Shown here one piece after another: positions 12,701-49,627 of a stretch of 64,000 nucleotides of DNA; position 1 is the stretch's first letter, and the number at the start of each line of letters is the position of its first letter. The stretch is from Patescibacteria group bacterium. Lineage in GTDB: Bacteria; Patescibacteriota; Patescibacteriia; UBA1558; GWA2-36-10. Made by a program: the position numbers and the translations under genes. The notes below the pieces were generated by a model that saw nothing but the letters and a program-made list of their open reading frames with translations, ran no database searches and was not told the DNA's origin. Location of the stretch: positions 64,067-128,066 of the forward strand of contig JAQUKX010000001.1 in assembly GCA_028718865.1 (NCBI GenBank), given 5' to 3'.

Positions 12701-13516
12701 TTAGAAGTAATAAGTGAAGCCATTGCTAAAAACCGCTATAGTACCCTGTTCTATATTACTGAGTACTTTGCATTGAATTTTGGCTAAACGATCTAGAGTT
12801 TCCAAATGAGGATGCTTGAATTTGTTATTTAAGCCTGCCTGAATTAAACAAAGCTCAGGATTAACAAATTGTAAAAATTCTACTGCTGAAGAATAACGGC
12901 TGCCGTGATGGCCGATTTTTAAGATCTTTGATTGCAAATCAAAACCCGAAGACAGCAATTTTTTCTCCCCGACTTCTCCCAGATCGCCGGTAAAAAGAAA
13001 ATTTGTCTGGCCGTAGCTTATCTTTATCACCAGAGAATTTTCATTGAAATCATCGTGCTGGAAATCCGCCAAAAGTACCTGAGCGGACAAATCATCAGCC
13101 AGCTGGAAAACATCACCGGCCTCGGCGATAATAGGCGTGAGATTTTTTTCTTGGAGCTTGGCCTGCCAAATATGATATAAAAAATCATCCGGTTGATGGG
13201 CAGTGGTGATAATATTTTTTATCTGATATTTGTTCAGCAGTTCTATCAAGCCGACTATATGATCAGCATGGTAATGGCTGATAATCAAATAATCAATATT
13301 CCTTTCCTGCCAAGGCAAAACTTGCCCTAGACGATACAAAAGCAAATTGTCCGGCCCGCCGTCAATCAAAATATTTATACCCGAAGGATGACTGAGTAAA
13401 ATCGCATCGCCTTGACCCACATCCAGAAAATAAACTGCCAAGTCATCTGGCCGGCGTGGCCAAATAAAAAATAAAAACAAAATAATCAAAATCGCCAAAA
13501 ATATTTTTTTATTCAT
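12701..13516 (-). CDS. comEC: ComEC/Rec2 C-terminal metallo-beta-lactamase domain protein
   Basis: YFLDVGQGDAILL and HYHADH MBL motifs with its own N-terminal TM helix. The start overlaps the upstream ORF stop (ATGAATAA). Confidence 0.8.
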   Translation of the reverse strand: MNKKIFLAILIILFLFFIWPRRPDDLAVYFLDVGQGDAILLSHPSGINILIDGGPDNLLLYRLGQVLPWQERNIDYLIISHYHADHIVGLIELLNKYQIKNIITTAHQPDDFLYHIWQAKLQEKNLTPIIAEAGDVFQLADDLSAQVLLADFQHDDFNENSLVIKISYGQTNFLFTGDLGEVGEKKLLSSGFDLQSKILKIGHHGSRYSSAVEFLQFVNPELCLIQAGLNNKFKHPHLETLDRLAKIQCKVLSNIEQGTIAVFSNGFTYYF

Positions 13517-14855
13517 AATCTTGGGGTTTTAAAACCAAAGTAAGCAAGCCCATAAAAAACAAAGCCAGCAAAAGATAAGTGGCAGAGAAAGTGCTGTTTT
13601 GCAAATAAGCATAAGGCAGTCCGGCCAGCCAAGCAGCTATGGTCACTATCAACTTAAAACAAATAAAAAGCGGCCAGCTTATCAACCAAGCTATAGGAGC
13701 AACTAATCCGAAAATAGCCAAGGCCATGCTCAAAAGCAAAATCAAGGGCAAAAAAGGCAATATCAAAAAATTGGCCAGCGGGGCAATCAGAGAAAAAATC
13801 CCAAAATAATAAACAATCAAAGGCCAAGTAAAAACTTGAGCAGCTAGAGTCACTGACATTACTTCCCTTAATTTAAAAATTTTGGGAATAAAAACCAAGA
13901 CTCGCTGGAAAAATTTAACAAAATAAAGCAGTCCCAAGACTGCCAAAAAAGACAACTGAAAGCCAATGTCATAAAGTAGCACTTGCCTATTTATCAAAAC
14001 AAAAATATCAGCTGCTAAAAACAGACTAGAAATCGAGCTGGAGTTGCGGCCAAAAAAAGGCCCTAACAAAACCATCATGACCATCAAGCTGGCTCTGACT
14101 GCTGAACTGGGAAAAGCAATAAGATAAAGATAAAAAAATAGAATTGAAAGAAGCCAGACAAAAGATCTTTTGCGGGAAAAGCCTAGCCAAAGCAAAAAAC
14201 TCTGCAATAAATAAACAATAATAGCAATATGTAAGCCGGAAATAGCAATAATATGGCTTAGTCCCACTTGAGCAAAAACATCTCTTAGCTCAGCTGGAAT
14301 TTCCCGCCTATCAGCCAAAAGCATGGCTTTGGCCAGAGAGGAAGCCGGTTCAGGTAAATAAGAGTTGAGGTTATTCCAGAAATACTGCTTGGCCTGCAAA
14401 AGATAAAAATGACTATCCTTTTCTTGGCCAACGACTTTTATTTTGGCAAAAGAACAGGTGCCATAAATTTTGTCTTTGGCCAAATATTTGTCATAAAAAA
14501 ATTCCCGGCCGAATTCATCGGCTATAGGCTCGGGCTGGTAAACTTTGCAGGCAATTTCCAAGACATCGCCGACCTGATACTGGGGATAAAGTGGCCCGTA
14601 GAGCAAAATCCGGCCCAAATAATTTTCCAAATTTTGCGGCTCAATTGTCAAGTTCCAGCCAGCTAATTTTTTGTCGGCCTTTTTGACTAGGCCATTGAAA
14701 ACATAAAATTGATTATAAGCAAAATCTTGATTTTGAACTTCTTGGTCAAAATAAAGCAGCCAAACAAAATTGGCCAATAAAAAAATGAGACTAAAGGCTA
14801 AAAACCACTTACTTTTGCTTCTCATACGCTTTTGCCAAAAAGGCCAAAGGCGCAT
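13509..14855 (-). CDS. comEC: ComEC/Rec2 N-terminal part (DUF4131 plus polytopic competence channel domain)
   Basis: 448-aa ORF with many TM helices and a ComEC-like core (AISGLHI...). It directly precedes the MBL-domain ORF. Confidence 0.8.
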   Translation of the reverse strand: MRLWPFWQKRMRSKSKWFLAFSLIFLLANFVWLLYFDQEVQNQDFAYNQFYVFNGLVKKADKKLAGWNLTIEPQNLENYLGRILLYGPLYPQYQVGDVLEIACKVYQPEPIADEFGREFFYDKYLAKDKIYGTCSFAKIKVVGQEKDSHFYLLQAKQYFWNNLNSYLPEPASSLAKAMLLADRREIPAELRDVFAQVGLSHIIAISGLHIAIIVYLLQSFLLWLGFSRKRSFVWLLSILFFYLYLIAFPSSAVRASLMVMMVLLGPFFGRNSSSISSLFLAADIFVLINRQVLLYDIGFQLSFLAVLGLLYFVKFFQRVLVFIPKIFKLREVMSVTLAAQVFTWPLIVYYFGIFSLIAPLANFLILPFLPLILLLSMALAIFGLVAPIAWLISWPLFICFKLIVTIAAWLAGLPYAYLQNSTFSATYLLLALFFMGLLTLVLKPQDYE

Positions 14856-19921: not shown

Positions 19922-21703
19922 TTATCGGGCAGTAGCCCAGAAAATAAGCTGGCCACTTTTGGAACCAGACAAAGAAAATCCGGACGGCACAGCCAAGCGG
20001 ACATTGACCGCATTGCTGGCGGCCGTAGCCAAATTGGCCTGCCAGGCAGGCCAAAGTTGATTATCAAGCCTGACATTTTCTGCGAAAATATCCTCACCCA
20101 AAATACTTGACTCCAAATGAATATCCAGACTGCCCAGATTATTAACGATCACTATACTTTCGGCTGACTGACCGGGCCTGAGAGAGCCAAAGTTGATGCT
20201 AGACTGGCTAAGAGAAAAAGCCACTGTTCCCTCCTGCGGGCCAGGATCACTAGCTTCAATATAAGCCAAAAGATCCACGCTTTGCGATACTCCTTCGCCG
20301 ACGCTGGCAAATAGCTTTTCGCTACGGACATAATTGTCGCTGCCGGCAACAAAAAGCGGATAAACTCCATCGCTGGCAAAAGCAATTTCTGCTTGTCCGG
20401 CCGAGTCACTCTGATAATTTAAACTACCCGCTTTGATGTCGACACCGACCAAAGACTGCCAAACAGAACCGTCAAAATACTGAGTTAAAACAGTAATAAT
20501 TTCTCCTGCCTCGACTTGAAGCTTGTCAGCAGTCAAGCGGCTGGGGTAGAAAGGATAGCCGCCATAAGCCCACAAAACCTCATCATCGGCCGCCAGCTGA
20601 TAATTGTCAGCCGAGACTGTCCCGGCTTGCCAATTGACAAAATATTGCCAGCCACTGCTGCCTTGAGAATCAATACCGCCTATTGAAGATACATAAGGAC
20701 CATAGTCGGAATTTTCTATCTGATAAGTATAGCCGCAAATTTGTGCTGCTGCTGCCAAAATATCTAAAACCGTCACTGCTGATAAGCCTTGCGTCAAGCA
20801 CAAAGAATTATCCGGTCCTTCAATGCGTATTTTCTGGCCCAAAGGCAAAGGAGTATTACTCTCTTCTGACAAACTAAGATAATTGAGAGGATAATACTTG
20901 CCTGATAAAGCTACTAGCGCGTAGGCTGTCACCATAGCCGAGCCATTACTGTCGCTAGGCAGCCACAAAAAAGATCCGTTTGGCTGCAAAAGGCTGTTTA
21001 GAAAAACTACTGGATCAGCGCTATTTTTTTGCCAAGTCAAAGGACTGATATTCGCTTTGTTAAGCGCCGCTACGACCCAAGCTGTCGAAGCGCCGTCTGA
21101 CTGAGATCCAGCTTGATAAGGAAAACCACCGTCATCATTTTGCAAATCCTGTAAATAAACCAAGCTGGCTTGAAGCGGAGCTGAAGTCGGAGCCAATCCT
21201 GCGTCCAAAAGCGCCATTATAGCCGCTGCTGTATCATTGCTATCAGAATCATTTATCTCTACTGACCAGCTCCAGCCGCCATCCGAATTCTGCTGGCTTA
21301 AAATAAAATTTTTAATCTCCCCTATATTACTGCGTCTATCCGCCGCGGCCAAAGCCATCAGTCCCCAAGAATCATCATTGAGAAGCTCCGGCGAACCAAG
21401 CTGGCCATTGTTAAAATTATTTTCTACTGTATTGGCCAGCGCGACAATAGCGTCGCTATCTTGGCTGGCAACAGCCGCCAGAGCCAAAATATTTTTGGCA
21501 GCCGTCATTAAATCAGCCGTACCAGCATCAATATAAGAAATATCGGGATTGCTATAACCATTTGCTGCCAAAGCCTGCGTAATCCAACTGTTTTGATTTT
21601 GGCTCTGTAAATAAACAATACTGGCGCTATAATCAGCTTTGGCCGGAGCAAAAGAAAAAACCAGCGTCGCTACAAGCAGTAGTAAAATAATTCTTCTTTT
21701 CAT
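19922..21703 (-). CDS. secreted protein with prenyltransferase/squalene-cyclase-like alpha-alpha-toroid repeats
   Basis: Signal peptide. Repeated DGGW/DGGF motifs (NSDGGWSWS, DDGGFPYQAG) resemble PF00432/PF13243 repeats. Confidence 0.55.
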   Translation of the reverse strand: MKRRIILLLLVATLVFSFAPAKADYSASIVYLQSQNQNSWITQALAANGYSNPDISYIDAGTADLMTAAKNILALAAVASQDSDAIVALANTVENNFNNGQLGSPELLNDDSWGLMALAAADRRSNIGEIKNFILSQQNSDGGWSWSVEINDSDSNDTAAAIMALLDAGLAPTSAPLQASLVYLQDLQNDDGGFPYQAGSQSDGASTAWVVAALNKANISPLTWQKNSADPVVFLNSLLQPNGSFLWLPSDSNGSAMVTAYALVALSGKYYPLNYLSLSEESNTPLPLGQKIRIEGPDNSLCLTQGLSAVTVLDILAAAAQICGYTYQIENSDYGPYVSSIGGIDSQGSSGWQYFVNWQAGTVSADNYQLAADDEVLWAYGGYPFYPSRLTADKLQVEAGEIITVLTQYFDGSVWQSLVGVDIKAGSLNYQSDSAGQAEIAFASDGVYPLFVAGSDNYVRSEKLFASVGEGVSQSVDLLAYIEASDPGPQEGTVAFSLSQSSINFGSLRPGQSAESIVIVNNLGSLDIHLESSILGEDIFAENVRLDNQLWPAWQANLATAASNAVNVRLAVPSGFSLSGSKSGQLIFWATAR

Positions 21704-21961
21704 AAATTTTATTAAATTATTATTAAAAAACTCCGCCTAAGAAAAGCGGAGACAAACCTATTATATTTAAATAATAAACTCATCCCTTTTCTCCTTAGGA
21801 AAAGACACAAGAACTCAGGTATCTGACTTATCCCGATTTTGTTAAAAATCGGGCTTACAGTAGCTAGGACTGTGGGGGTTTTGCACCCCGCTTCCCTGAT
21901 TTGGTTGTTAAAATACCAGCCAAGTTATTCTAACAGGAAAAAAATCTCTTGGCAAATCAGC

Positions 21962-33700: not shown

Positions 33701-36197
33701 CTGCGTGATTGAAAGTGGTTTGATCTATCTCCCTATTAAACCTAACCATCAATTCGGAAGTGGTGCAGGCGCCATCGCAATCAGGCGAGTGACTCAAGAC
33801 TTCCAAATTACCGCTCTCTGAGCTTATGCTCCAAGTATATTCGCAAAAATTAACTGTATCGCAACTGGTGCCACTCATACAAGAACTACCAGCGCTGGTT
33901 GGACAGCAAAGATTGCCTAATCCACTATCCATACATTGCTGATTGCTAGTGCAATTGCCGACATTAAAAGGCCAAGGATTGCTTTCGGTATTATTATTAT
34001 CTCTGACTATCGCCAATCCGGTTTGAGCATTGTTTGGCACACTAGTCATAATCTGATTATTGTTCCAAATCGAAGGAGTAGCCAAAGCGCCGTTGTAAAA
34101 AATAACACTGCCCATAGTAGCGCCAAAATTCTCCCCGACAAAAGTAACTGCCGTGCCTATTGGTCCGTTGTCTGGAGAGACATTACAGATCTGCGGTCCA
34201 GGCAAGCCGGCTAATACTTGGAAATTAACTGAATTGCTTTCAGCTTGGTCTGAATTTCTAATTACCCTAATAGGTTGTCCGCCCAAAGGCAAGCCAGAGG
34301 GCACCTTGACAATAATCCTGTCATTACGCCAATAATTACCGCCGCAAATCGCCGGAAAGCTAAAATCTCCATCTATACTGCCAAACAAAACTCTTCCTTG
34401 AGTATTGCCAAAGTTGGCTCCCATAATAGTGACATACTGGCCTATTGGGCCAGAATTTGGACTGACGCTATTGATTATAGGCAAACCACTTACTTGAGAT
34501 AAAGCTGTAAAAGGATAGGAATTACTCTCTTCTTCACTCGGAGATTCTATAACTACTCCTACATTACCCACTACATTGGGCACTTGGGCGGTATAAAGAT
34601 ATTGGGAAGAAAAATTAACCACACTGCTTTGGAAATTACCAAAATGAATCTGGCTATTATCCGCAAACTTCAAGCCATGGATGGTCACGCTTGTTTCAAA
34701 CGCGCCTGACAGGGGATCCAAACGGCAAATACCAGGCCGGTCAATGTTGTTTCTGGTAAATTGCACACCATTGCTCGTCTCTCCTCCTTCACTTATATCT
34801 TTCGTGATCGTCAATAAGCCATTTACAGCCGCTGCAGGCACAGCAATGACAATATAATTATCAGTCCAGGTATTGCTACACTGATTATTTATATCCGCCG
34901 GACGAATGCCATTGACAGTTGCGCCAGCGCCAGCGTCAAACGTCACTACTCCTTCCAAATCTCCAAAACCACTTCCATAAATGGTAATCAAATTACCTTC
35001 GTTGCCATTATCAGGAGAGATAGAATCAATCCTCGGCCCACCGGGCGTGCCGCTACCGGCACAAATAGCCGCTGGTAGACATGAATTTGACCGACAACAC
35101 CCTGAAGAACAATCGTTTCCCGAAGAACACTCTACTGTAAAAAACTCATTATCACTCTGACCACCGACTTCCACTACTACCTGACTGCTAAGAGCATTGG
35201 CCGGCACCTGGAAATTTATCAAATTATCTGTCCAATTGCTTATATTCAAATCAGTGTTGGTCAAATCAATTGTTTGATCATTTAGCCAGCCCAACATACT
35301 TAAACTTCCTTGAGTATTACCAAAGCCTATACCTTCTATATCCACGTTAATGGGCGCCGTGGCGCTATCAGGATTGAGACAATGGATATCTGGTCCAGTT
35401 ACATTACTGTCAACATTAAAGACAAAATCTGCCAGACCTGGCGGCACTTCATTTATGTTTCCCAAATCATTATAAAGATGAATGGTATAAAGGCCGTCAG
35501 TCAAGGTCAGAGGCACTCTCACATTTACTCTAGTATTTGACCAAGAATTGGCTGTTGTGCCGCCACAGACTACTAATTCAGCAACTGTTTCAGCCCCGCC
35601 AGCATCTCTTAATAAGACTCTACCATCCGCGTCCGGGTTATTATTTCCATTGGTATCAAAATTACGACCCCTGATAGTAATAGAAGCTCCCGGAGGCCCT
35701 GATTGCCTGTTTGTACTGCAAATAATAGGATTATCAGGATTAAGTGGCGCCGGACAATTACTCTGGCCGCCAGGAGGAGGAATACCATTTCCCGGTGTTC
35801 CCGGTGTTCCCGGACCAGTAGCATCATAGAGCTGATTCAGCACAAATCTAGCAATGCCATAAGAAGCCAAAATAATCACCAGACCAATAACAGCACTAAT
35901 AATCAGCATTTTGGCTCTTTGAATTTTGTCAGTTGCCCCGCGCGAGGTCATCCATAAAAATCCGCCATAAAGGAGCAGAAGCACCGCCAAAGTTCCCAAA
36001 AATCCCAAAAATATATTTATCACCAAAGCAATGGTTTCTTGAATAGACCTGGTACCCAAATAAACACCGGCATCAGCCAATTCATCAATGCCCAGCTCCT
36101 GGGCAGCTTGCGCCTGCACTTTGCTCATACTGACCAAAAACAAAGAAGAAGCGCTAAAAGTGATAAAAAATATTTTTTGCATGGCTATATTAAACAT
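27768..36197 (-). CDS. giant (2809 aa) multidomain cell-surface protein, putative adhesin
   Basis: Domain order: signal peptide, VirB2/TrbC-pilin-like two-TM anchor, Gly/Pro linker, five or more IPT/TIG domains, two Big_5/SbsA-Ig-like modules, FN3, about nine Cys-rich CGDG...CD repeats, then a C-terminal VWA domain (DIVYVFDVSGSM). Single uninterrupted ORF. Confidence 0.85.
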   Translation of the reverse strand: MFNIAMQKIFFITFSASSLFLVSMSKVQAQAAQELGIDELADAGVYLGTRSIQETIALVINIFLGFLGTLAVLLLLYGGFLWMTSRGATDKIQRAKMLIISAVIGLVIILASYGIARFVLNQLYDATGPGTPGTPGNGIPPPGGQSNCPAPLNPDNPIICSTNRQSGPPGASITIRGRNFDTNGNNNPDADGRVLLRDAGGAETVAELVVCGGTTANSWSNTRVNVRVPLTLTDGLYTIHLYNDLGNINEVPPGLADFVFNVDSNVTGPDIHCLNPDSATAPINVDIEGIGFGNTQGSLSMLGWLNDQTIDLTNTDLNISNWTDNLINFQVPANALSSQVVVEVGGQSDNEFFTVECSSGNDCSSGCCRSNSCLPAAICAGSGTPGGPRIDSISPDNGNEGNLITIYGSGFGDLEGVVTFDAGAGATVNGIRPADINNQCSNTWTDNYIVIAVPAAAVNGLLTITKDISEGGETSNGVQFTRNNIDRPGICRLDPLSGAFETSVTIHGLKFADNSQIHFGNFQSSVVNFSSQYLYTAQVPNVVGNVGVVIESPSEEESNSYPFTALSQVSGLPIINSVSPNSGPIGQYVTIMGANFGNTQGRVLFGSIDGDFSFPAICGGNYWRNDRIIVKVPSGLPLGGQPIRVIRNSDQAESNSVNFQVLAGLPGPQICNVSPDNGPIGTAVTFVGENFGATMGSVIFYNGALATPSIWNNNQIMTSVPNNAQTGLAIVRDNNNTESNPWPFNVGNCTSNQQCMDSGLGNLCCPTSAGSSCMSGTSCDTVNFCEYTWSISSESGNLEVLSHSPDCDGACTTSELMVRFNREIDQTTFNHADINDIRVLAGATLVTPVVHSFSGNGQYLHVQLPIPLQPGVVYSVTLGQGFTDILGNALAADYSWDFTTGNDQCVISNARVTPSTYTSSLTNQIVNYRLNAISSTPQCGETIVYCQNCTYNWALGAVLPDSSAANIASGQNQQIVGVQNLLLAGQGSAEVLGTIIDGGQNFVSQGELLMDISGSMQTPLAITNYWPNCDGMCLDPIIRVEFNRSVLPATLNISNIAIYQGAPNGSNIFNDSVVFSPNNRRMDFGYNGPLLPGETYYIVLSSGFISDGNSTVSLSWNFSTGDSQCVVSGADVDPDTQLSTQLGQLSRFDATAMASNIPNCGPVPVYCPNCTYQWSLSNTTPSGAASIPGSGSNSFVQVRNDLPALESGSTNVDVLLTDPIAGSFSDFGLLTIDNSGTTVSYNTPTIIGREPIGQNICTNVSPYLDFSERMNEESIRNNIKLYREDNGSYIEVPGSFRFVTMNLDDDPERETRAIFNPSSLLPADTQFWMAIIDASQVVSQNNIPLDLAGSAGLSSLPPGLSGEAGWSFSTGGQTCRVHNAWIAPTPDWFTCTGRNDCPDDASPLLGNQRSYEAFVYSISGQLLNNSLLNFTWSLSNSLATLAAAQLPGNTLVTSGSQNGQVTLGAGVSSPDDGSSTTASGLINLFFCENPWPSLPGFPWNESTYNFSTFYCQYSGLPGSTSLPHLQYLPTPRDNFSTDGLREYIFTINPSITSSYIEDVGLGSLAFASDSVRQRKQAKENPFNRLLTFLGIGSAQGQEQGIDLCIPNAPRNLQVTAVTDDSVSLSWLTPSSPSNPLQLPPSGFRVYRRVLGGNYVLLNTLPTSTLNYTDASVASGQTYEYIVASYADACAGGDDQFSRSSPVVVTVADVQPGIDIIGIRIMRNDQHLSVRDWFLRHAPNPNIPGILIEVDGYQALQVGSTIYIAGTNISGNLYTNIYILAHNIGARPDTINIFSQFVDNLKLNINITQNNNNVCEVDASIACSSDFDCEGRCLSQGLKLRRDTKRLADLVSIALRLEEYGQSHKACSGNSLMACAQDNDCPGTQTCRPYYPILGAGTYVQGMSTSPWPSWQDAFSSALGSLAAVDPINRFNGCPEGADPATCWNQSVDPNTFVCPQNSLVYLYNVLSGGQDYDLGANFEYDIYPAQYNINFVNRLRPTLSSLGINVNLGLVSYCNATNLNAPGGPASPYCGNGIVDGNEQCDGGFINACPANYDWWTPRMVGCNPPGTIGSNGNDISCTWYVPDPPFGEAECGGYCGDGTIQSYYEQCEGNNFAGDFICQSGHGLFCGQGCQAMCNQGPNAYPAARCGDGVWSAGIEQCDSSASPSGLSTWGCTNGGVASCNSSCQVTCSVGAPYAGYCGDGIVQAEEQCDYMNYSTPSPHDSGPNLAYACNTLCQFTSQYCGDGTLQSQFGENCDYLMNYSTPSPPNSTPFNQYACRPHGVGYFTYNGLNYGACSPTYGGWCGDGVWDLGNDEFCDPGDPWRGITQSPAPPSPDQSSQTNQYSCRADCLARIGGYCGDGIAQLAYSEVCDGLHYPNRPLPAQSGPDNTYTCDMTGSFMCQRSDPSGPYCGDGIRQVFFGEGCDWGPGGNNPPGGSFPWPRGSNFANFSSPNNQYECVSCGNTGGWCGDGIVQQWEQCDTGFDPAVQIEKDIDIVYVFDVSGSMYDRAVALCSSLQQVVNNLDSGAYGDIDYRISIFVMGDNDGGIVSADGSGVPGGGVYTNPVTPTYLTPITIDDIPSLSPWLGSAGWLDESQVVFKALYTDCPLRQAPYNQRVRYLSFYNNSSNDINSEVSADGDQVLYGERCQDYLNIIGNPDPGFISGHGDAAGRLSNWGYAMTKIIPDYNWLPGYHRLLIPVSDEGGYCGSNASILRANENCNPDTSFGSGTHDVLAHSIDLANSQNTKVAISPVLFTNFHAELAAHGQCLADGTGGRYLSSTTGWSAATISVINSTFCDGRGDGFMDCTLPTP

Positions 36198-36204
36198 TTT
36201 TTTA

Positions 36205-37830
36205 CTAAGGCACCTGACAATTCACTCCCGGACATTGCGAGCCAGAGGCATTATTATCACAAACACAAGACCCGCCTACTGGATCTTCGCAAGCACAAGG
36301 ATACCAGCAATTTTGCCTGGCATCTTTAATGCCGGAATTAAGCGTAACTCTATAATCAGCACTCAAATCAAAAGTGTCATGCTGAATTCTCAAAGTATCT
36401 CCCGGGCTGCCGCTGTCAATTCTCATCCAATAATTTATCAAGCCACCACCGGATCTTGTTAAATTAACGCTATTGGTATTTATAGAGCTGGAAAGAAGTG
36501 TTTTGTCAAAAACAACTCGAATAGGTTCATTTGCGCCAACGCTATTTGGCTCGTCCATACTGCTAATAACCGGCGGCGTCAAATCAATCTGATTATTAGT
36601 GGCAAACTGCCAGCCATAGCTGGTAGGCGCTACTGCAGCCACACCGCAACTCCCGGCGCAATTGAGTTGATTACCGGCCATATCACGAATATTATTGGTA
36701 ACCTCGCCGATAAAATCAGCGCCGCCGGGAAGGCAATAGACTTCTCCGCCACAGGAATTGTTGCCACAAAGGTCATCCGTCATAAACTCAATTGTCTGAT
36801 ATTGATTGGAAATAACATACTCTCCTGCTACTGGTGAACCTGCCGTACTCACCGTGATGTTGGCAAAAGAAGGGTGTATGCCCACGGCAAATAGCGGATT
36901 GACCGCTTCAGAAAAATTTATTTGCACTATACTGTTTCGAGGATTATTACTTGAATTGTGCCTAGGTTGAACTGAAATAACACGAGGCGGAGCAAGATCA
37001 AGATCGGTACTGACAGTAAAACGCCAGCTATAACCCCCAACCAGCGGAAAAGCCGCTGCTCCAGCAGCTGTACGCAAAGAAGCCAAGTCCATCCTATATC
37101 TGACATTTTCCGTATCACTGCCTAAATGACTATCGGTGTTGCCATAAGGATTAAACTCAAAAACTCGCGGACTAGCCGTATAGCTAATCAGCAAATCACT
37201 ACCGCTAATATAATTATTTGTCCCATCTATATATAACCTGATATTTGTTTCATGAGCCGGACAATCGCTAACACAACTGGCATTAGCCACAATAGTAGAA
37301 ACATCCATATCTTCTCTAAAAGTCACGTAAATATTGGTATTTCTAGGAATCCCCGTAGCATTTCTAGCCGGATAATGACTATCTAGAACTCCGCCTGACA
37401 ATCCAACGCCGCCGCTGTAGCCGCTGCCTACTCCCGAACCACCAGGCCCCTGAATAACATAACGATCATAGTTCTGTAAAATAAAGCGAGCAATAGCATA
37501 GGAAGATAATACTATTACCAAACCAATCACTCCGTTGATAATGATTCTCTTAGCTTTATCTACCTTATCGGAACTACCTCCGGACGTCATCCAAATAAAA
37601 CCGCCGTAGAGTATGATCAAGGTGGTCAAAACTCCCAAAAATCCTAAAAATATATTTATAATCAAAGCAATGGTCTGACGTATATCTCTAGTGCCCAAAT
37701 TAACGCCAGCGTCTGCCAACTCATCAATACCCAATTCTTGAGCAGCTTGAGCCAAAGATAGCTGGGGGAATAAAAAAATAACCGCCAAAAACAAAATAAA
37801 TAAAACGGTTATTTTTTTACGACTAAGCAT
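36205..37830 (-). CDS. 541-aa surface protein with the same VirB2/TrbC-pilin-like N-terminal anchor plus Big_5/Ig-like domains
   Basis: Residues about 27-110 are about 75% identical to the giant protein N-terminus. A Gly-rich linker and PPV...SbsA-Ig-like motifs follow. It ends 7 nt upstream of the giant gene. Confidence 0.75.
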   Translation of the reverse strand: MLSRKKITVLFILFLAVIFLFPQLSLAQAAQELGIDELADAGVNLGTRDIRQTIALIINIFLGFLGVLTTLIILYGGFIWMTSGGSSDKVDKAKRIIINGVIGLVIVLSSYAIARFILQNYDRYVIQGPGGSGVGSGYSGGVGLSGGVLDSHYPARNATGIPRNTNIYVTFREDMDVSTIVANASCVSDCPAHETNIRLYIDGTNNYISGSDLLISYTASPRVFEFNPYGNTDSHLGSDTENVRYRMDLASLRTAAGAAAFPLVGGYSWRFTVSTDLDLAPPRVISVQPRHNSSNNPRNSIVQINFSEAVNPLFAVGIHPSFANITVSTAGSPVAGEYVISNQYQTIEFMTDDLCGNNSCGGEVYCLPGGADFIGEVTNNIRDMAGNQLNCAGSCGVAAVAPTSYGWQFATNNQIDLTPPVISSMDEPNSVGANEPIRVVFDKTLLSSSINTNSVNLTRSGGGLINYWMRIDSGSPGDTLRIQHDTFDLSADYRVTLNSGIKDARQNCWYPCACEDPVGGSCVCDNNASGSQCPGVNCQVP

Positions 37831-43808: not shown

Positions 43809-44366
43809 ATGCGCATTATAATCGGACTGGGCAATCCAGACAAAGAATATTTTTACACCCGCCACAATTTCGGCTGGCTGACTTTGGACAGTCTGGCGGA
43901 AAAAAGAAAATTGTCCTGGAACAAGCACAAAAACAGCAATAGCCTGCTGGCGGAATTTAGTCAGGGTCGGGAAAAGATAATCCTAGTTAAGCCCCTGACC
44001 TATATGAATAATTCCGGCTTGGCCGTGAGGGCACTGAAAAAATTCTTCAAACTGCCCAACAACAAACTGATTATTGTCTATGACGATCTTGACCTGCCTT
44101 TTGGCAAGATTCGCCTATCCAAAAATAAAAACTCCGGCGGCCATAAAGGCTTGGATTCTATTATTGGTCAATTAAAAAGCAAGGACTTCAAACGCATACG
44201 TCTAGGTATAGGTCCTCAAGAAGGGTCAGCGGAAAATTTTGTCTTGCAAAAATTCTCCAAAGAGGAAAAAAATAAGATCAATGAAATCATTGATACCAGT
44301 CATCTGATAATTGAATATATTTTAGAAAACAGTTTTGATCTGGCTGCCAATAAATACAATCAATAA
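43809..44366 (+). CDS. pth: peptidyl-tRNA hydrolase
   Basis: IIGLGNP...YTRHNFGW signature. Confidence 0.9.
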   Translation: MRIIIGLGNPDKEYFYTRHNFGWLTLDSLAEKRKLSWNKHKNSNSLLAEFSQGREKIILVKPLTYMNNSGLAVRALKKFFKLPNNKLIIVYDDLDLPFGKIRLSKNKNSGGHKGLDSIIGQLKSKDFKRIRLGIGPQEGSAENFVLQKFSKEEKNKINEIIDTSHLIIEYILENSFDLAANKYNQ

Positions 44367-44372
44367 CCCCGA

Positions 44373-44517
44373 AAAACCCGCTGGGTCTTGTCATTCTGAA
44401 GCGAATCGGGCGTATGCCCGATGAAGCGATAGAATCTACCAATTTTATAACTTTGGATTCTATCGGTCGCTACGCTCCCTCCAGAATGACACAATGACAA
44501 GACCCAGCGGGTTTTTA
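44373..44517. repeat. 145-nt composite palindromic element with 27-bp outer stem and two internal hairpins; bidirectional terminator or MITE-like
   Basis: aaaaacccgctgggtcttgtcattctg pairs with cagaatgaca(caatgaca)agacccagcgggttttt. Inner stems are atcggg/cccgat and gcgatagaatc/gattctatcg(g)tcgc. U-runs lie on both sides. Confidence 0.6.
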
Positions 44518-44539
44518 TTTAAAATTATATTTCTACTGA

Positions 44540-44620
44540 TTACAAACTCATCAGCCAGCGAGCCATAGTACGCACGCCAAAGCCAGATGCACTAGCTGGG
44601 GTGTAGCTATCGACCAAGAG
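44540..44620 (-). repeat. duplicate copy of the last about 25 codons of the aminopeptidase gene; direct repeat with 46796..46875
   Basis: ttacaaactcatcagccagcgagccatagtacgcacgccaaagcc differs from the sequence at 46796 by 1 of 45 nt. It translates on the minus strand to ...SYTPASASGFGVRTMARWLMSL*. Confidence 0.8.
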
Positions 44621-44625
44621 TAGAT

Positions 44626-45531
44626 CTAATAATTTCTGAAGGAAGATTGAGGTATTTTTTCAAAATTCCATCTTTCTTTCCAACTTTCACCATCACGTGA
44701 TACATCAAAATTTTTTGCACCTAAATTTATAGCTTCATCAATATTTTTTATAATTATATATTTGCCTATATTAGGAAGTAATTCTATATCAGAAGCTGTC
44801 TCAAGAAAAAAATATTTATTTCTAAATAAAATTGAAATTGATATGCCTATTTTTTTTTCACCTAGCATAAAAGTAAATACATGATAGTTGTATTTTAGCT
44901 TCAAAAAATCGATGAAATTTTGTCTTTCATCTTTATCATTGAAGCTAGATTCAGCTCCCCATCTTTTAATCTTAAATTTGAAGTATATATCTATATCATC
45001 GAAGTTATTTTTAATTACCTTTATATCTTTTTCACTGATTTTTTTTATTTCTCTTCTCAATTTTCTACGGTGCTCAATAGAACCTTTAAATTTTTTTTCT
45101 ATAAAATCATTATGATCTTTTATGTTGCCTAAAGGAAGATTGTATATATAGTTTTTAATCTGTTTTTGTATTATAAAAATATGATTTCTTTCTAAATTAT
45201 CGAAATAGGCCTTTTCGTTGGCAGCTTCATAAAATTTCGGCACATATTCCTCCCAACCTGGAGTGATAAAAACTTTATTTTCATCCATATATTCGCCACC
45301 GAAAAATTCAAGATAACCTTTTTCGGAATTAAATTGCAGTGGAAGTAACCCTATATTCTTTTCTTGATATTCCCCCACAAAAAATTTTATTGGAAATTTT
45401 TTGTGGCTAAAAAAACAATAACGAAACTCCCAATCATCATATAAGGATTTTTTTGGAGATAATTCTTCCCAGATAATTTTTGCTTTTTGAATATCATCAA
45501 CTATTTTTATTATCAAAGATGATTCATTCAT
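44626..45531 (-). CDS. putative FemAB/BioF2-like (GNAT-fold) acyltransferase
   Basis: 301-aa AT-rich ORF resembling Acetyltransf_6-type enzymes from polysaccharide/peptidoglycan modification clusters. Low-confidence family call. Confidence 0.35.
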   Translation of the reverse strand: MNESSLIIKIVDDIQKAKIIWEELSPKKSLYDDWEFRYCFFSHKKFPIKFFVGEYQEKNIGLLPLQFNSEKGYLEFFGGEYMDENKVFITPGWEEYVPKFYEAANEKAYFDNLERNHIFIIQKQIKNYIYNLPLGNIKDHNDFIEKKFKGSIEHRRKLRREIKKISEKDIKVIKNNFDDIDIYFKFKIKRWGAESSFNDKDERQNFIDFLKLKYNYHVFTFMLGEKKIGISISILFRNKYFFLETASDIELLPNIGKYIIIKNIDEAINLGAKNFDVSRDGESWKERWNFEKIPQSSFRNY

Positions 45532-46642
45532 AGTCTTTTTTCATACAAAAAAATTTATTAACTTCATCGTAAATATACTCCACATCCCTACTTGATATTT
45601 GCCAATTTACTGGGAATACCAAAAAAGAAGTGTAGAGCTTTGTGTTCAGTTCTGAAAGATATGGAGTCTTAACCAAGTCCCATAAACGCCATGGGAATAT
45701 TTTATTTTTTGAGAGATGTTCTATAAAACTAGATTGAATTTTATCTTCTATAAAAACGGGGTAATAGTTTATTAGTGAGGATAACTCTAACGTTTCTCTT
45801 GGTAATATTTTAAAATTTTTATTTTTTATTTTATTAAAGTGTTTATGAAATGTAAGGATTATTGATTTGTTATGTTTTATTATTTTTTTAAAATCTATAA
45901 AATTATAGATATAAAAAGACAACCCTCCCATAGTCGCTTTATTCGGAGGCTCTCCTATAAATGAATTAAATTTTATAAAGACTTTTTCAGATATTGAATA
46001 AATTTTTGTGGAGTTAAAAATATAAATAAAAAAAATCAATACCCTATACATTAAATATGTTAATTCACATTTTATTTTATACCAATTAATCAATTCTACA
46101 TCACGGCGGCTATAGTGAAAATGGCGATTTATTAAGTGGGCTCCAAGTAGCGAACAATGTTTTCTTATGCTATCTATATAAAAATGATTTTCATTAATAG
46201 GTGATATTTCCGAAGTAGATAAAATTTTATGAGCAAAGTCGTCTATAAATATTGTTTCTTTATTACATAACTTGACGAGCCGTATTTTTTCCTCTGGACT
46301 TAGTGAAAATCCTAGAAAAGAATAGTTCAGAATTATTCGTGGCTGGTATTTAATTATTTGTTGAAAATAGTTATTTTTATCAATTGAAAAATCATCATTT
46401 ACTTTATAAAATATAATATTTAAATATTTACTAATAAAATTCAATGTTTCAATACAATAAAAATTGGGCATAAGTATAACTTCTTTTTTGCCGGAAATTT
46501 TATAATGACTAAAGATACATACTAAGGCATCACTAAAAGAGATGAAAAAATTATTAATCTTCCTCTCGCCTTGTAATAAGCCACCACTTAGTGTAAAAGG
46601 TTGTAATATAAGTGGTCTTAATACTTCAATTACTTTTTTCAT
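45524..46642 (-). CDS. divergent DegT/DnrJ/EryC1-like (fold-type I PLP aminotransferase-like) protein
   Basis: 372-aa ORF. EVILMPNFYCIETLNFI...IFIDDFAH aligns in pattern with the DegT region (EVIVPAFTFVATANAI...VIEDAAQAHG), but key residues are altered. Confidence 0.35.
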   Translation of the reverse strand: MKKVIEVLRPLILQPFTLSGGLLQGERKINNFFISFSDALVCIFSHYKISGKKEVILMPNFYCIETLNFISKYLNIIFYKVNDDFSIDKNNYFQQIIKYQPRIILNYSFLGFSLSPEEKIRLVKLCNKETIFIDDFAHKILSTSEISPINENHFYIDSIRKHCSLLGAHLINRHFHYSRRDVELINWYKIKCELTYLMYRVLIFFIYIFNSTKIYSISEKVFIKFNSFIGEPPNKATMGGLSFYIYNFIDFKKIIKHNKSIILTFHKHFNKIKNKNFKILPRETLELSSLINYYPVFIEDKIQSSFIEHLSKNKIFPWRLWDLVKTPYLSELNTKLYTSFLVFPVNWQISSRDVEYIYDEVNKFFCMKKDYE

Positions 46643-46795
46643 TTTTTAATAAGTAAACGCATACGAAGTTGGTTCCGCAGTGACCATAATATAATTTTAA
46701 CATCACGGAAACAAGAAGGCAACTTAAAGAAAACCAGCTCAAAAAGTTGATTTTCTCACATAATTAGTATTATTGAATTTATTATCTAGAAAAAA

Positions 46796-47764
46796 TTACA
46801 AACCCATCAGCCAGCGAGCCATAGTACGCACGCCAAAGCCCGATCCGCCAGCTGGCGTATAACTATTGACCGGCTTCTCGGCATACACTGGCCCGGCTCC
46901 ACCCATGTCTATTTTCATCTGTCCCATATTTTCCCAGGGCTTGATATTTAGTCCACCGCTGTCAAAAGTAATGCCCTTGCCCACTAGAGCTACTTTTTTC
47001 TTTGCTCCTTTTTGGGGTTTATAAACCAAGTGAATAAACTTAGGCGCTTCATGTGATCCTCGGGAAATGGCCAAAAAAGCATTCATCCCTAATTTGGCAA
47101 TTTCTTCTTTTTCCAAAATTTTTACTTTGATGTTTTTACTTTTCTTTGCTAAGCCCACTGCCTCTTTGGCCAAAAAATCCGGAGTCATAGTGCCAGCTGG
47201 TTCATTGACCAAATCTCTAGTCAATTTTATTCCCTGGACTAATTGACAACCAAAATCCCAACCTTTGAGCCAAGATTTTTTTTGAGCTGGATTAGAGTAA
47301 ATATAAAATTCCTTAATAGCTAGATTTCTTTTATCTGGTAATTTTTTCTTGTATTTTGAAAATTCATATGCCCCGAGCTTGAGTCCCTCGGCCATTGACT
47401 GTGCCAACAGAGAAACATCTTTGCTGCCTTTGAGCCAATACTGTAAATCTAAACCAATCTTGGTTGTCTGATATTTTTTAGAATAAAGAGCGATTTCTCC
47501 AGCTGCCAAGCGCCAATTTTCCGGAGCAAAAGACTTGCTTTGGCCAGTACCGACAAAAACAACTGTTTGCTCATTGTCATGGATAACAAAAATCTCCCCT
47601 TTTTTACCGCTAAAATTTTCTTTTTCCAGACGACGGCCAATAGCGGATTGATCTTCGTAGTTGAGACTAGTGATCAATTTTTTGGCGGCTGACTGATCAG
47701 CCAAGAGCGGATAAAACAAAACTTCCGCCTCCCCTGCTTCTTGCATTTTAAATATTAACTGCAT
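46796..47764 (-). CDS. pepA: M17 leucyl aminopeptidase homolog with internal deletion of about 190 aa of the catalytic domain; probably non-functional or a pseudogene
   Basis: N-terminal domain and VGKGITFDSGG...DMGGAG are intact. The NTDAEGRL box and the Asp/Glu metal ligands are absent. The C-terminal tail GFGVRTMARWL matches the PepA C-terminus. Confidence 0.6.
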   Translation of the reverse strand: MQLIFKMQEAGEAEVLFYPLLADQSAAKKLITSLNYEDQSAIGRRLEKENFSGKKGEIFVIHDNEQTVVFVGTGQSKSFAPENWRLAAGEIALYSKKYQTTKIGLDLQYWLKGSKDVSLLAQSMAEGLKLGAYEFSKYKKKLPDKRNLAIKEFYIYSNPAQKKSWLKGWDFGCQLVQGIKLTRDLVNEPAGTMTPDFLAKEAVGLAKKSKNIKVKILEKEEIAKLGMNAFLAISRGSHEAPKFIHLVYKPQKGAKKKVALVGKGITFDSGGLNIKPWENMGQMKIDMGGAGPVYAEKPVNSYTPAGGSGFGVRTMARWLMGL

Positions 47765-49077: not shown

Positions 49078-49111
49078 ATTTTTTAGTTTATAGAGGTAAT
49101 AGCGCCCAGAA

Positions 49112-49137
49112 CGACTAGATCCAGGCTCCCTCAATAA
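49112..49137 (-). promoter_or_regulatory. conserved leader motif between rplK and rplA; candidate L1 autoregulatory binding site
   Basis: Minus strand reads AUUAUUGAGGGAGCCUGGAUCUAGUCG. A near-identical copy lies at 49601..49627. It is 34 nt from the ATG, too far for a Shine-Dalgarno. Confidence 0.4.
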
Positions 49138-49139
49138 TT

Positions 49140-49565: not shown

Positions 49566-49600
49566 ATGAATGCTTGTTTACGAGGTCTTAATGCTCGGAT

Positions 49601-49627
49601 CGACTAAAACCAAGCTCCCTCAATAAT
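49601..49627 (-). promoter_or_regulatory. second copy of the conserved leader motif, upstream of rplK
   Basis: Minus strand reads AUUAUUGAGGGAGCUUGGUUUUAGUCG, about 36 nt upstream of the rplK ATG. GAGG...CCUC pairing potential flanks it in both copies. Confidence 0.4.

Follow-up and report, generated by a model that had tools for sequence, protein, structure and literature searches.

In a 64-kb window (the whole stretch of DNA analysed here) from a 137,949-nt contig of the metagenome-assembled genome (MAG; locus tags PHO91_) of an ultra-small Patescibacteria bacterium, the leucyl aminopeptidase gene pepA is followed by a genomic islet of 2.26 kb. The islet is a well-supported, recently acquired one, and it occupies a conserved convergent gene junction, with pepA and the two open reading frames (ORFs) of the cassette on the minus strand and the peptidyl-tRNA hydrolase gene pth on the plus strand. 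It resembles known kinds of element, being either similar to a cis-mobilizable element (CIME) or similar to the microcin H47 island of Escherichia coli, and its mechanism is read here from the repeat anatomy only. A single-crossover (Campbell-type) integration, at the pepA 3' end, of a foreign circular cassette bearing a pepA-tail-like segment is considered moderately likely.

The inserted unit comprises 2,256 bp, made up of a pepA-tail-like segment, a 152-nt spacer, ORF2 and ORF1. The read set SRR22315506 represents the same population, and its Logan assembly at k=31 was used. The features of the locus are as follows, with the islet given before its neighbours.

44539..44615, minus strand: repeat copy 1 (attachment site attR-like), an orphan pepA 3' end located 10 nt after the ORF1 stop codon; it encodes VDSYTPASASGFGVRTMARWLMSL followed by a stop codon and has no upstream ORF.
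44549..44584, minus strand: core of copy 1, 36 nt identical to the core of copy 2.
44626..45531, minus strand: ORF1, 301 aa, a tandem Gcn5-related N-acetyltransferase (GNAT) protein of the Fem type (aminoacyl-tRNA-dependent transferase-like).
45524..46642, minus strand: ORF2, 372 aa, a divergent pyridoxal-phosphate (PLP)-dependent protein of fold type I, DegT/PseC-like.
46643..46794, minus strand: AT-rich spacer, 152 nt between copy 2 and ORF2, with a promoter-like TTGCCT-17-TAAAAT with TG at 46722-46694.
46795..46871, minus strand: repeat copy 2 (attL-like), fused to pepA as its 3' end; it encodes VNSYTPAGGSGFGVRTMARWLMGL followed by the stop codon at 46796-46798.
46805..46840, minus strand: core of copy 2, 36 nt identical between the copies and the putative crossover segment, which is also precisely where the contigs of the Logan k=31 assembly break.
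46796..47764, minus strand: pepA (M17 leucyl aminopeptidase), 322 aa versus 496 aa, with a deletion junction at about 46896.
43809..44366, plus strand: pth (peptidyl-tRNA hydrolase; PF01195, E 3e-60), the convergent neighbour of pepA, conserved in relatives.
44372..44516, no strand assigned: compound hairpin of 145 nt between the orphan tail and pth, with arms of 27 nt that are 96% complementary.

The two repeat copies are arranged in the same orientation and extend over 77 nt, 68 of which (88%) are identical, a level that a binomial estimate places far above chance for 64 kb. Paralogous coding repeats aside, this repeat is unique of its kind in the window. Each copy corresponds, on the minus strand, to the final 24 codons of pepA, the stop codon and one extra base, and the similarity ends there, one base past the stop. 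The 36-nt identical core separates an outer arm of 10 nt from an inner arm of 31 nt on the pepA-internal side; the inner arm contains eight of the nine mismatches, and the ninth is located 9 nt before the end of the repeat. Such a clustering departs from chance (hypergeometric P=0.002), and an identical run as long as 36 nt has a P value of 0.02. No terminal inverted repeats were found at the ends of the cassette among the repeat pairs reported, and Rfam and tRNA scans of the junctions detected no RNA genes.

The sequence of the arms distinguishes the two copies. In amino acids, the inner arm of copy 2 does not differ from that of the closest relative (P0002/L003), and copy 1 carries D, S and A at positions where N, G and G are invariant in nine relatives and in copy 2; in terms of these residues, the orphan is a decayed pepA tail. 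At three adjacent synonymous sites, copy 1 groups with L003 (AGCTACACCCC), whereas copy 2 matches more distant relatives (AGTTATACGCC), which points to different histories of the two inner arms. On the outer side, copy 1 reads Ser-Leu-stop and is followed by the native hairpin and pth; its outer base A, in the Ser codon, matches that of L003, as expected for a native outer arm. The 10-nt outer arm of copy 2 reads Gly-Leu-stop and closes the pepA frame, and AT-rich foreign DNA starts beyond it.

The composition of the islet deviates strongly from that of its surroundings. The guanine-plus-cytosine (GC) content is 0.22-0.30 in 300-nt windows over 44650-46700 versus approximately 0.40-0.45 in the flanks, and the lowest value among all 64 1-kb bins (0.265) belongs to 45001-46000. 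The segment between the repeats has 26% GC overall and 21% GC at third codon positions (GC3), versus a genome of 42% GC; the GC3 of the cassette genes is 0.20-0.22, versus 0.39-0.47 in nine neighbouring genes.

The pepA-pth site was compared in seven relatives with sufficient flank (L003, L005 and L017-L021). P0002/L003 is the closest to the window, with 80% amino acid identity in pepA, and the other six show 57-61%. In all seven, a 496-aa pepA converges straight on pth without the cassette, which makes the cassette a derived insertion. The gap between both genes, non-coding in these relatives and most often occupied by a simple bidirectional terminator, measures 47-494 nt, versus 2430 nt in the window. 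On the pth side of the islet, L003 is collinear with copy 1, the hairpin, pth and der; on the pepA side, the collinearity extends over copy 2 and pepA. Non-coding inserts of 270 nt and 494 nt with several terminator-like hairpins are present at the pepA-pth junction of L020 (6486-6757) and L021 (6127-6622), respectively, which suggests that this junction tolerates insertions.

These results bear on a previous description of the locus made from the letters alone, the sequence-only reading. The GC drop that it reported is borne out by the 300-nt windows, the 1-kb bins and GC3 alike, and the insertion that it proposed at the pepA 3' end agrees with the empty pepA-pth site in seven of seven relatives. 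The repeat of about 80 bp that it placed at 44540-44620 and 46796-46875 is real, and its limits have been redrawn to the 77 nt at 44539-44615 and 46795-46871.

According to the integration model, a circular form of the cassette would carry the 77-nt pepA-tail-like segment, and one reciprocal crossover, presumably inside the 36-nt core, would join this segment to the chromosomal pepA tail. Copy 2 would then be an attL-like hybrid in which the native inner arm and the core are followed by the outer arm of the element, which completes the pepA frame, and copy 1 would be an attR-like hybrid consisting of the inner arm of the element, the core and the native outer arm, which precedes the native hairpin and pth. 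A similarity that ends one base past the stop codon is what would be expected if the segment borne by the element only has to complete the gene. In pepA orientation, the integrated junctions read ...GATGGGTTTGTAATTTTTTCTAGATAATAAATTC... between copy 2 and the spacer, and ...CCTTCAGAAATTATTAGATCTACTCTTGGTCGATAGC... between ORF1 and copy 1. The predicted attB is GGTCAATAGTTATACGCCAGCTGGCGGATCG + GGCTTTGGCGTGCGTACTATGGCTCGCTGGCTGATG + AGTTTGTAATCAGTAGAAAT, and the predicted attP is ATCTACTCTTGGTCGATAGCTACACCCCAGCTAGTGCATCT + core GGCTTTGGCGTGCGTACTATGGCTCGCTGGCTGATG + GGTTTGTAATTTTTTCTAGAT.

No recombinase domain was found in the cassette, whose two ORFs have metabolic folds only and whose 152-nt spacer is too short for a gene. 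Because the cassette encodes no recombinase, the exchange would have to be catalysed in trans by a recombinase of the host or of a co-resident element, or take place through short homology. No transposase domain was detected in the cassette with Pfam either, and the duplication, of 77 nt and imperfect, is unlike the short identical target duplications of transposons and insertion sequences. Thus, the lack of an integrase noted in the sequence-only reading holds, since the cassette contains only the Fem-like and PLP-enzyme ORFs. From the site-specific integration that it put forward, the att-like anatomy is retained; the site specificity is putative, as a short-homology crossover (RecA-type or RecA-independent) or an in-situ duplication may instead have been at work. 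As for the route of entry, DNA uptake through ComEC would be possible, because this protein is encoded in the window: ComEC (PF03772) and an adjacent ORF with a metallo-beta-lactamase domain are found at 12701-14855, about 30 kb from the islet.

Homologues of the cassette genes were found in other genomes. The nearest homologues of ORF2 and ORF1 (84% and 83% amino acid identity, respectively) are located together on the Logan contig L004, from a genome of approximately 31% GC, where they are flanked by a PQ-loop gene plus a hypothetical gene and, at the opposite end, by a NUDIX gene. The window and L004 share 85.7% nucleotide identity over a stretch whose limits are precisely the start codon (ATG) of ORF2 and the stop codon of ORF1. 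More distant ORF2-ORF1 pairs are present in two further contexts, after a class-I tRNA synthetase gene (L012) and after an L-PSP gene (L016). A scan of genome contigs with the single ORF2 protein returned no match; repeated with the ORF2 family alignment, it yielded six distant loci, with an ORF1 partner in L011 only. Since L004 shares exactly the ATG-to-stop segment and the pair recurs in other contexts, the moving unit looks like the gene pair itself. The spacer shows no similarity to the flanks of the other cassette copies. L004 also contains a 25-nt AT-rich repeat, 88% identical, at 810-834 and 2891-2915, just before the ORF2 ATG and the downstream NUDIX ATG, which may be either chance in AT-rich DNA or an insertion footprint.

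Several observations weigh against the Campbell-type integration. No pepA-tail peptides, spacer-like DNA or convincing flanking repeats were found in L004, L012, L013, L016 or L006-L011, in which only chance-level AT-rich matches appeared; the other cassette copies being without the pepA-tail-like segment, the attP form has never been seen. Viral contigs (searched by protein alignment and with the 32-nt core), INPHARED phages and PLSDB plasmids yielded no relatives. The recombinase scan, which covered the cassette ORFs and 20 further ORFs of 170-590 aa within the window, revealed no recombinase among these 20, which are housekeeping or surface genes or have no Pfam match. Furthermore, both inner arms are equidistant from the outgroup L003 (5/31 each), so that the assignment of native and foreign arms depends on few sites. 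Finally, most changes found only in copy 2 are synonymous and most of those found only in copy 1 are non-synonymous, a pattern that is also predicted by simple divergence after an in-situ duplication.

Such a duplication is a doubtful alternative, according to which foreign linear DNA, taken up for example via ComEC, would have been joined at a staggered break or by a template switch after the pepA stop, duplicating 77 nt of the target. Later, the orphan would have drifted while the pepA-linked copy remained under purifying selection, and the outer 46 nt would have been homogenised by gene conversion. The distribution of changes fits this course, those of copy 2 being four synonymous third positions and one non-synonymous one and those of copy 1 affecting invariant residues, as do the presence of ComEC in the window and the fact that neither a recombinase nor an attP-bearing copy was found. 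However, the inner 31 nt hold all of the divergence bar one site (P=0.002), which demands the additional step of gene conversion; on its outer side, the repeat stops within one base of the gene end; and the three synonymous-site groupings would require three reversions in 7 nt. A target duplication of 77 nt also counts against this alternative, as it far exceeds the known footprints of transposition or end-joining. It is likewise unlikely that the islet is the remnant of a larger phage-like element, or of one resembling an integrative and conjugative or an integrative and mobilizable element (ICE/IME), that carried an integrase and entered at the pepA 3' end, with internal deletions leaving two genes and hence a true CIME. 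The att-like repeat anatomy would also result from this origin, which agrees precisely with the definition of CIMEs (PMC5704250), and the genome is deletion-prone, as illustrated by the adjacent 522-nt deletion in pepA. Nevertheless, only the gene pair, from ATG to stop, is common to the window and L004, and this pair recurs elsewhere; the 152-nt spacer leaves no room for an integrase pseudogene; and no related sequence occurs on viral, phage or plasmid records.

The remaining explanations are much less probable than the Campbell-type integration. An assembly artefact or a mixed population, in which an empty pepA-pth site coexists with a separate 2.26-kb circle or two strains have been joined via the 36-nt core, is judged very improbable. 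The Logan assembly (SRR22315506, k=31) places the cassette in a separate 2,280-nt contig with both ends in the core, and its pth-side contig stops short; this graph is equally compatible with an integrated or a separate-circle topology. Exact-protein matches for pth, pepA, ORF1 and ORF2 come from this same population only, split at the repeat. By contrast, the MAG contig at NCBI traverses both repeat copies, and assemblers with k above 36 should follow only k-mers present in the reads. Moreover, even in the alternative topology, the cassette contig is joined to pepA-tail sequence at both ends, which would amount to the excised form of the same element. An ancestral cassette in the pepA-pth spacer, lost several times in the relatives via its flanking repeats, is hardly credible. 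Direct repeats would indeed favour precise deletion, but seven of seven relatives spanning 57-80% pepA identity are without the cassette and have a terminator only, its GC3 of 0.21 has not ameliorated towards the 0.45 of the host, and its closest homologues are located in other genomes at other loci.

With regard to the cargo, the start of ORF1 overlaps the stop of ORF2 by 8 nt (ATGAATGA). The promoter-like site in the spacer upstream is a consensus match only, such sites not being enriched over shuffled sequences. ORF1 matches PF13480 (Acetyltransf_6) with an E value of 4e-6 and 27.4 bits, above the cut-off of 22. Its AlphaFold2 (AF2) model, with a predicted local distance difference test (pLDDT) score of 94.2, has a tandem GNAT fold, and the best Foldseek matches are Sbb17/Sba18 (aminoacyl-tRNA-dependent peptide synthases), FemX and MprF, with E values of 1e-9 to 1e-11 and template modelling (TM) scores of 0.6-0.67 for Sbb17/Sba18 and FemX. 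ORF2 has no Pfam match at E<=0.1, PF01041 (DegT_DnrJ_EryC1) included, and this family is matched by 2 of 14 ORF2 homologues (best E 1.2e-9). The AF2 model of ORF2 (pLDDT 89.9) has PseC, WlaRG and DesI as its top Foldseek matches in the PDB, with an E value of 1e-10 and a TM score of about 0.6, and further sugar aminotransferases are matched as well. Identity of ORF1 and ORF2 to solved structures is only 11-16%. In the ORF2 family alignment, D135 and K161 (motif YIDSxRK) are invariant, and from their position in the motif they would be the catalytic residues, namely the conserved Asp and the Schiff-base Lys. Artificial RecA concatemers, the only matches of a PDB profile search with the ORF2 family alignment, were discarded, since their per-domain scores of 4.7 bits represent additive noise.

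The cargo had been described from the letters as FemAB-like and DegT-like. For ORF1 this is supported by both the PF13480 match and the FemX fold, and for ORF2 by the PseC-type fold though not by a PF01041 match. Both genes are maintained, given dN/dS values (ratio of non-synonymous to synonymous substitution rates) of 0.14 for ORF2 and 0.13 for ORF1 versus L004. Judging by the modelled folds, ORF2 probably adds an amino group to a sugar or cell-wall precursor, and ORF1 would then acylate or aminoacylate this group. More distant members of the family are neighbours of genes for ATP-grasp amino-acid ligases, MR_MLE epimerases, GNATs and a PLP decarboxylase.

The compound hairpin between the orphan tail and pth has a predicted folding energy of -76.7 kcal/mol (z = -8.3) and matches no Rfam family. 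Its central 105 nt or so (about 44400-44497) are 97-100% identical to L003, compared with 72-85% in the flanking genes; relatives other than L003 have a simple terminator only at this position. The Logan contig L001 breaks inside the hairpin. Presumably, the hairpin is the native bidirectional terminator of pepA and pth, which now also ends the cassette transcript. Two possible identities of the structure are a structured RNA that has been conserved and a small mobile insertion within a terminator. An imported recombination tract that brought the cassette was rejected as an explanation, the high identity to L003 being limited to the approximately 105 nt in the centre of the hairpin.

pepA itself has lost part of its coding sequence. 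An in-frame deletion of 522 nt joins ...KIDMGGA to GPVYAEKP..., with a microhomology of a few bases at most; nearly all the closest relatives listed have a pepA of 496 aa. The Pfam M17 catalytic domain is matched in the window at 2-115 of 310 only, with 116 to approximately 290 removed. According to a tblastn search with P0002, PDB alignments and the junction sequences, residues from about 294 to 453 of the 496-aa relative, including the HTDAEGR metal site, have no counterpart in the window. The aminopeptidase gene is thus not intact, a point that the sequence-only reading overlooked, as it did the promoter-like site of the spacer and the large conserved hairpin at the end of the cassette. The remaining 290 codons show no rate acceleration versus P0002 and a dN/dS of 0.18 (versus L003); on these grounds, an old pseudogene was ruled out, and the deletion looks recent. 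It is not obviously tied to the insertion of the cassette.

The islet can be compared with several known systems. CIMEs are bounded by attL/attR-type flanks and have no integration or transfer genes (PMC5704250). As in those of Streptococcus-type ICEs and IMEs, the repeats of the islet contain the 3' end of a protein gene and enclose cargo only, with a putative att function; in contrast, the islet has only 2.26 kb and two genes, its host is a Patescibacteria MAG, and no cognate ICE or IME was found within the window. The microcin H47 island of E. coli, of 13 kb, encodes no recombinase, so that its mobility relies on functions of the host or on RecA-independent recombination between short repeats; its imperfect repeats recombine in segments of identity without RecA or a known site-specific recombinase; both its excision and its integration, with the resulting hybrid sites, have been shown experimentally (PMC3191183, PMC5426353). 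The islet shares with it extensive, imperfect repeats that include an identity segment and the absence of an encoded recombinase, but it has a single 36-nt identity segment, its repeats are a gene end, and it is known here from sequence alone. Regarding hybrid sites of the H47 type, the 36-nt identity and the clustered mismatches are present and the affinities of the inner arms are mixed, a combination that such sites may explain. Integrase-bearing islands and prophages at gene 3' ends (tRNA, transfer-messenger RNA and protein genes) similarly duplicate the end of their target and restore its frame, and have a core with diverged arms, empty sites and a deviant composition; the islet differs from them in being without the defining integrase and in being one to two orders of magnitude smaller. 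As to the cargo, the model folds of ORF1 and ORF2 are those of Fem-type transferases (FemX, Sbb17/Sba18, MprF) and of sugar aminotransferases of the DegT/PseC type, respectively, despite the low identity to solved members and a position of ORF2 below the Pfam threshold.

A bolder extension of the Campbell-type integration, which we consider improbable, is that the ORF2-ORF1 pair constitutes a mini-element that has its own promoter, lacks a recombinase and circulates between Patescibacteria genomes of the Komeilibacteria-, Falkowbacteria- and Gracilibacteria-like kinds. A 3' end picked up from a host gene would serve it as a portable attachment site; once taken up via the competence channel, it would re-integrate by recombination that the host provides or that relies on short homology.

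Other features of the window were recorded apart from the islet. A direct repeat of 46 nt, 78% identical, is located on the coding strand just upstream of rplA and rplK (49093-49138 and 49582-49627), and may be a shared leader or regulatory element. A cobalamin riboswitch (RF00174, 46.5 bits) is present on the minus strand at 21797-21942, upstream of an ORF at 19922-21703 with DUF4430 and prenyltransferase-like domains. The segment 27768-37830 contains a giant ORF of 2809 aa and, after it, a protein of 541 aa in which Big_5 and T4SS-pilin domains were recognised; a 127-nt direct repeat, 79% identical, connects 35988-36114 with 37627-37753.

As an example of horizontal gene gain, the islet is clean and datable, and its two junctions are still in place; through it, a reduced Patescibacteria genome has acquired a module that probably modifies the surface or cell wall. 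Reads revealing a circle or an empty site would document cassette mobility without an integrase in Patescibacteria and supply a defined exchange site of 36 nt; otherwise, this would be a fairly ordinary small genomic islet. Should the mini-element proposal prove true, it would represent a minimal form of gene mobility suited to tiny genomes without dedicated mobile-element machinery. The cargo, small and portable, is a candidate for a pathway that yields aminoacylated amino-sugars or an altered peptidoglycan in organisms with poorly known envelopes.

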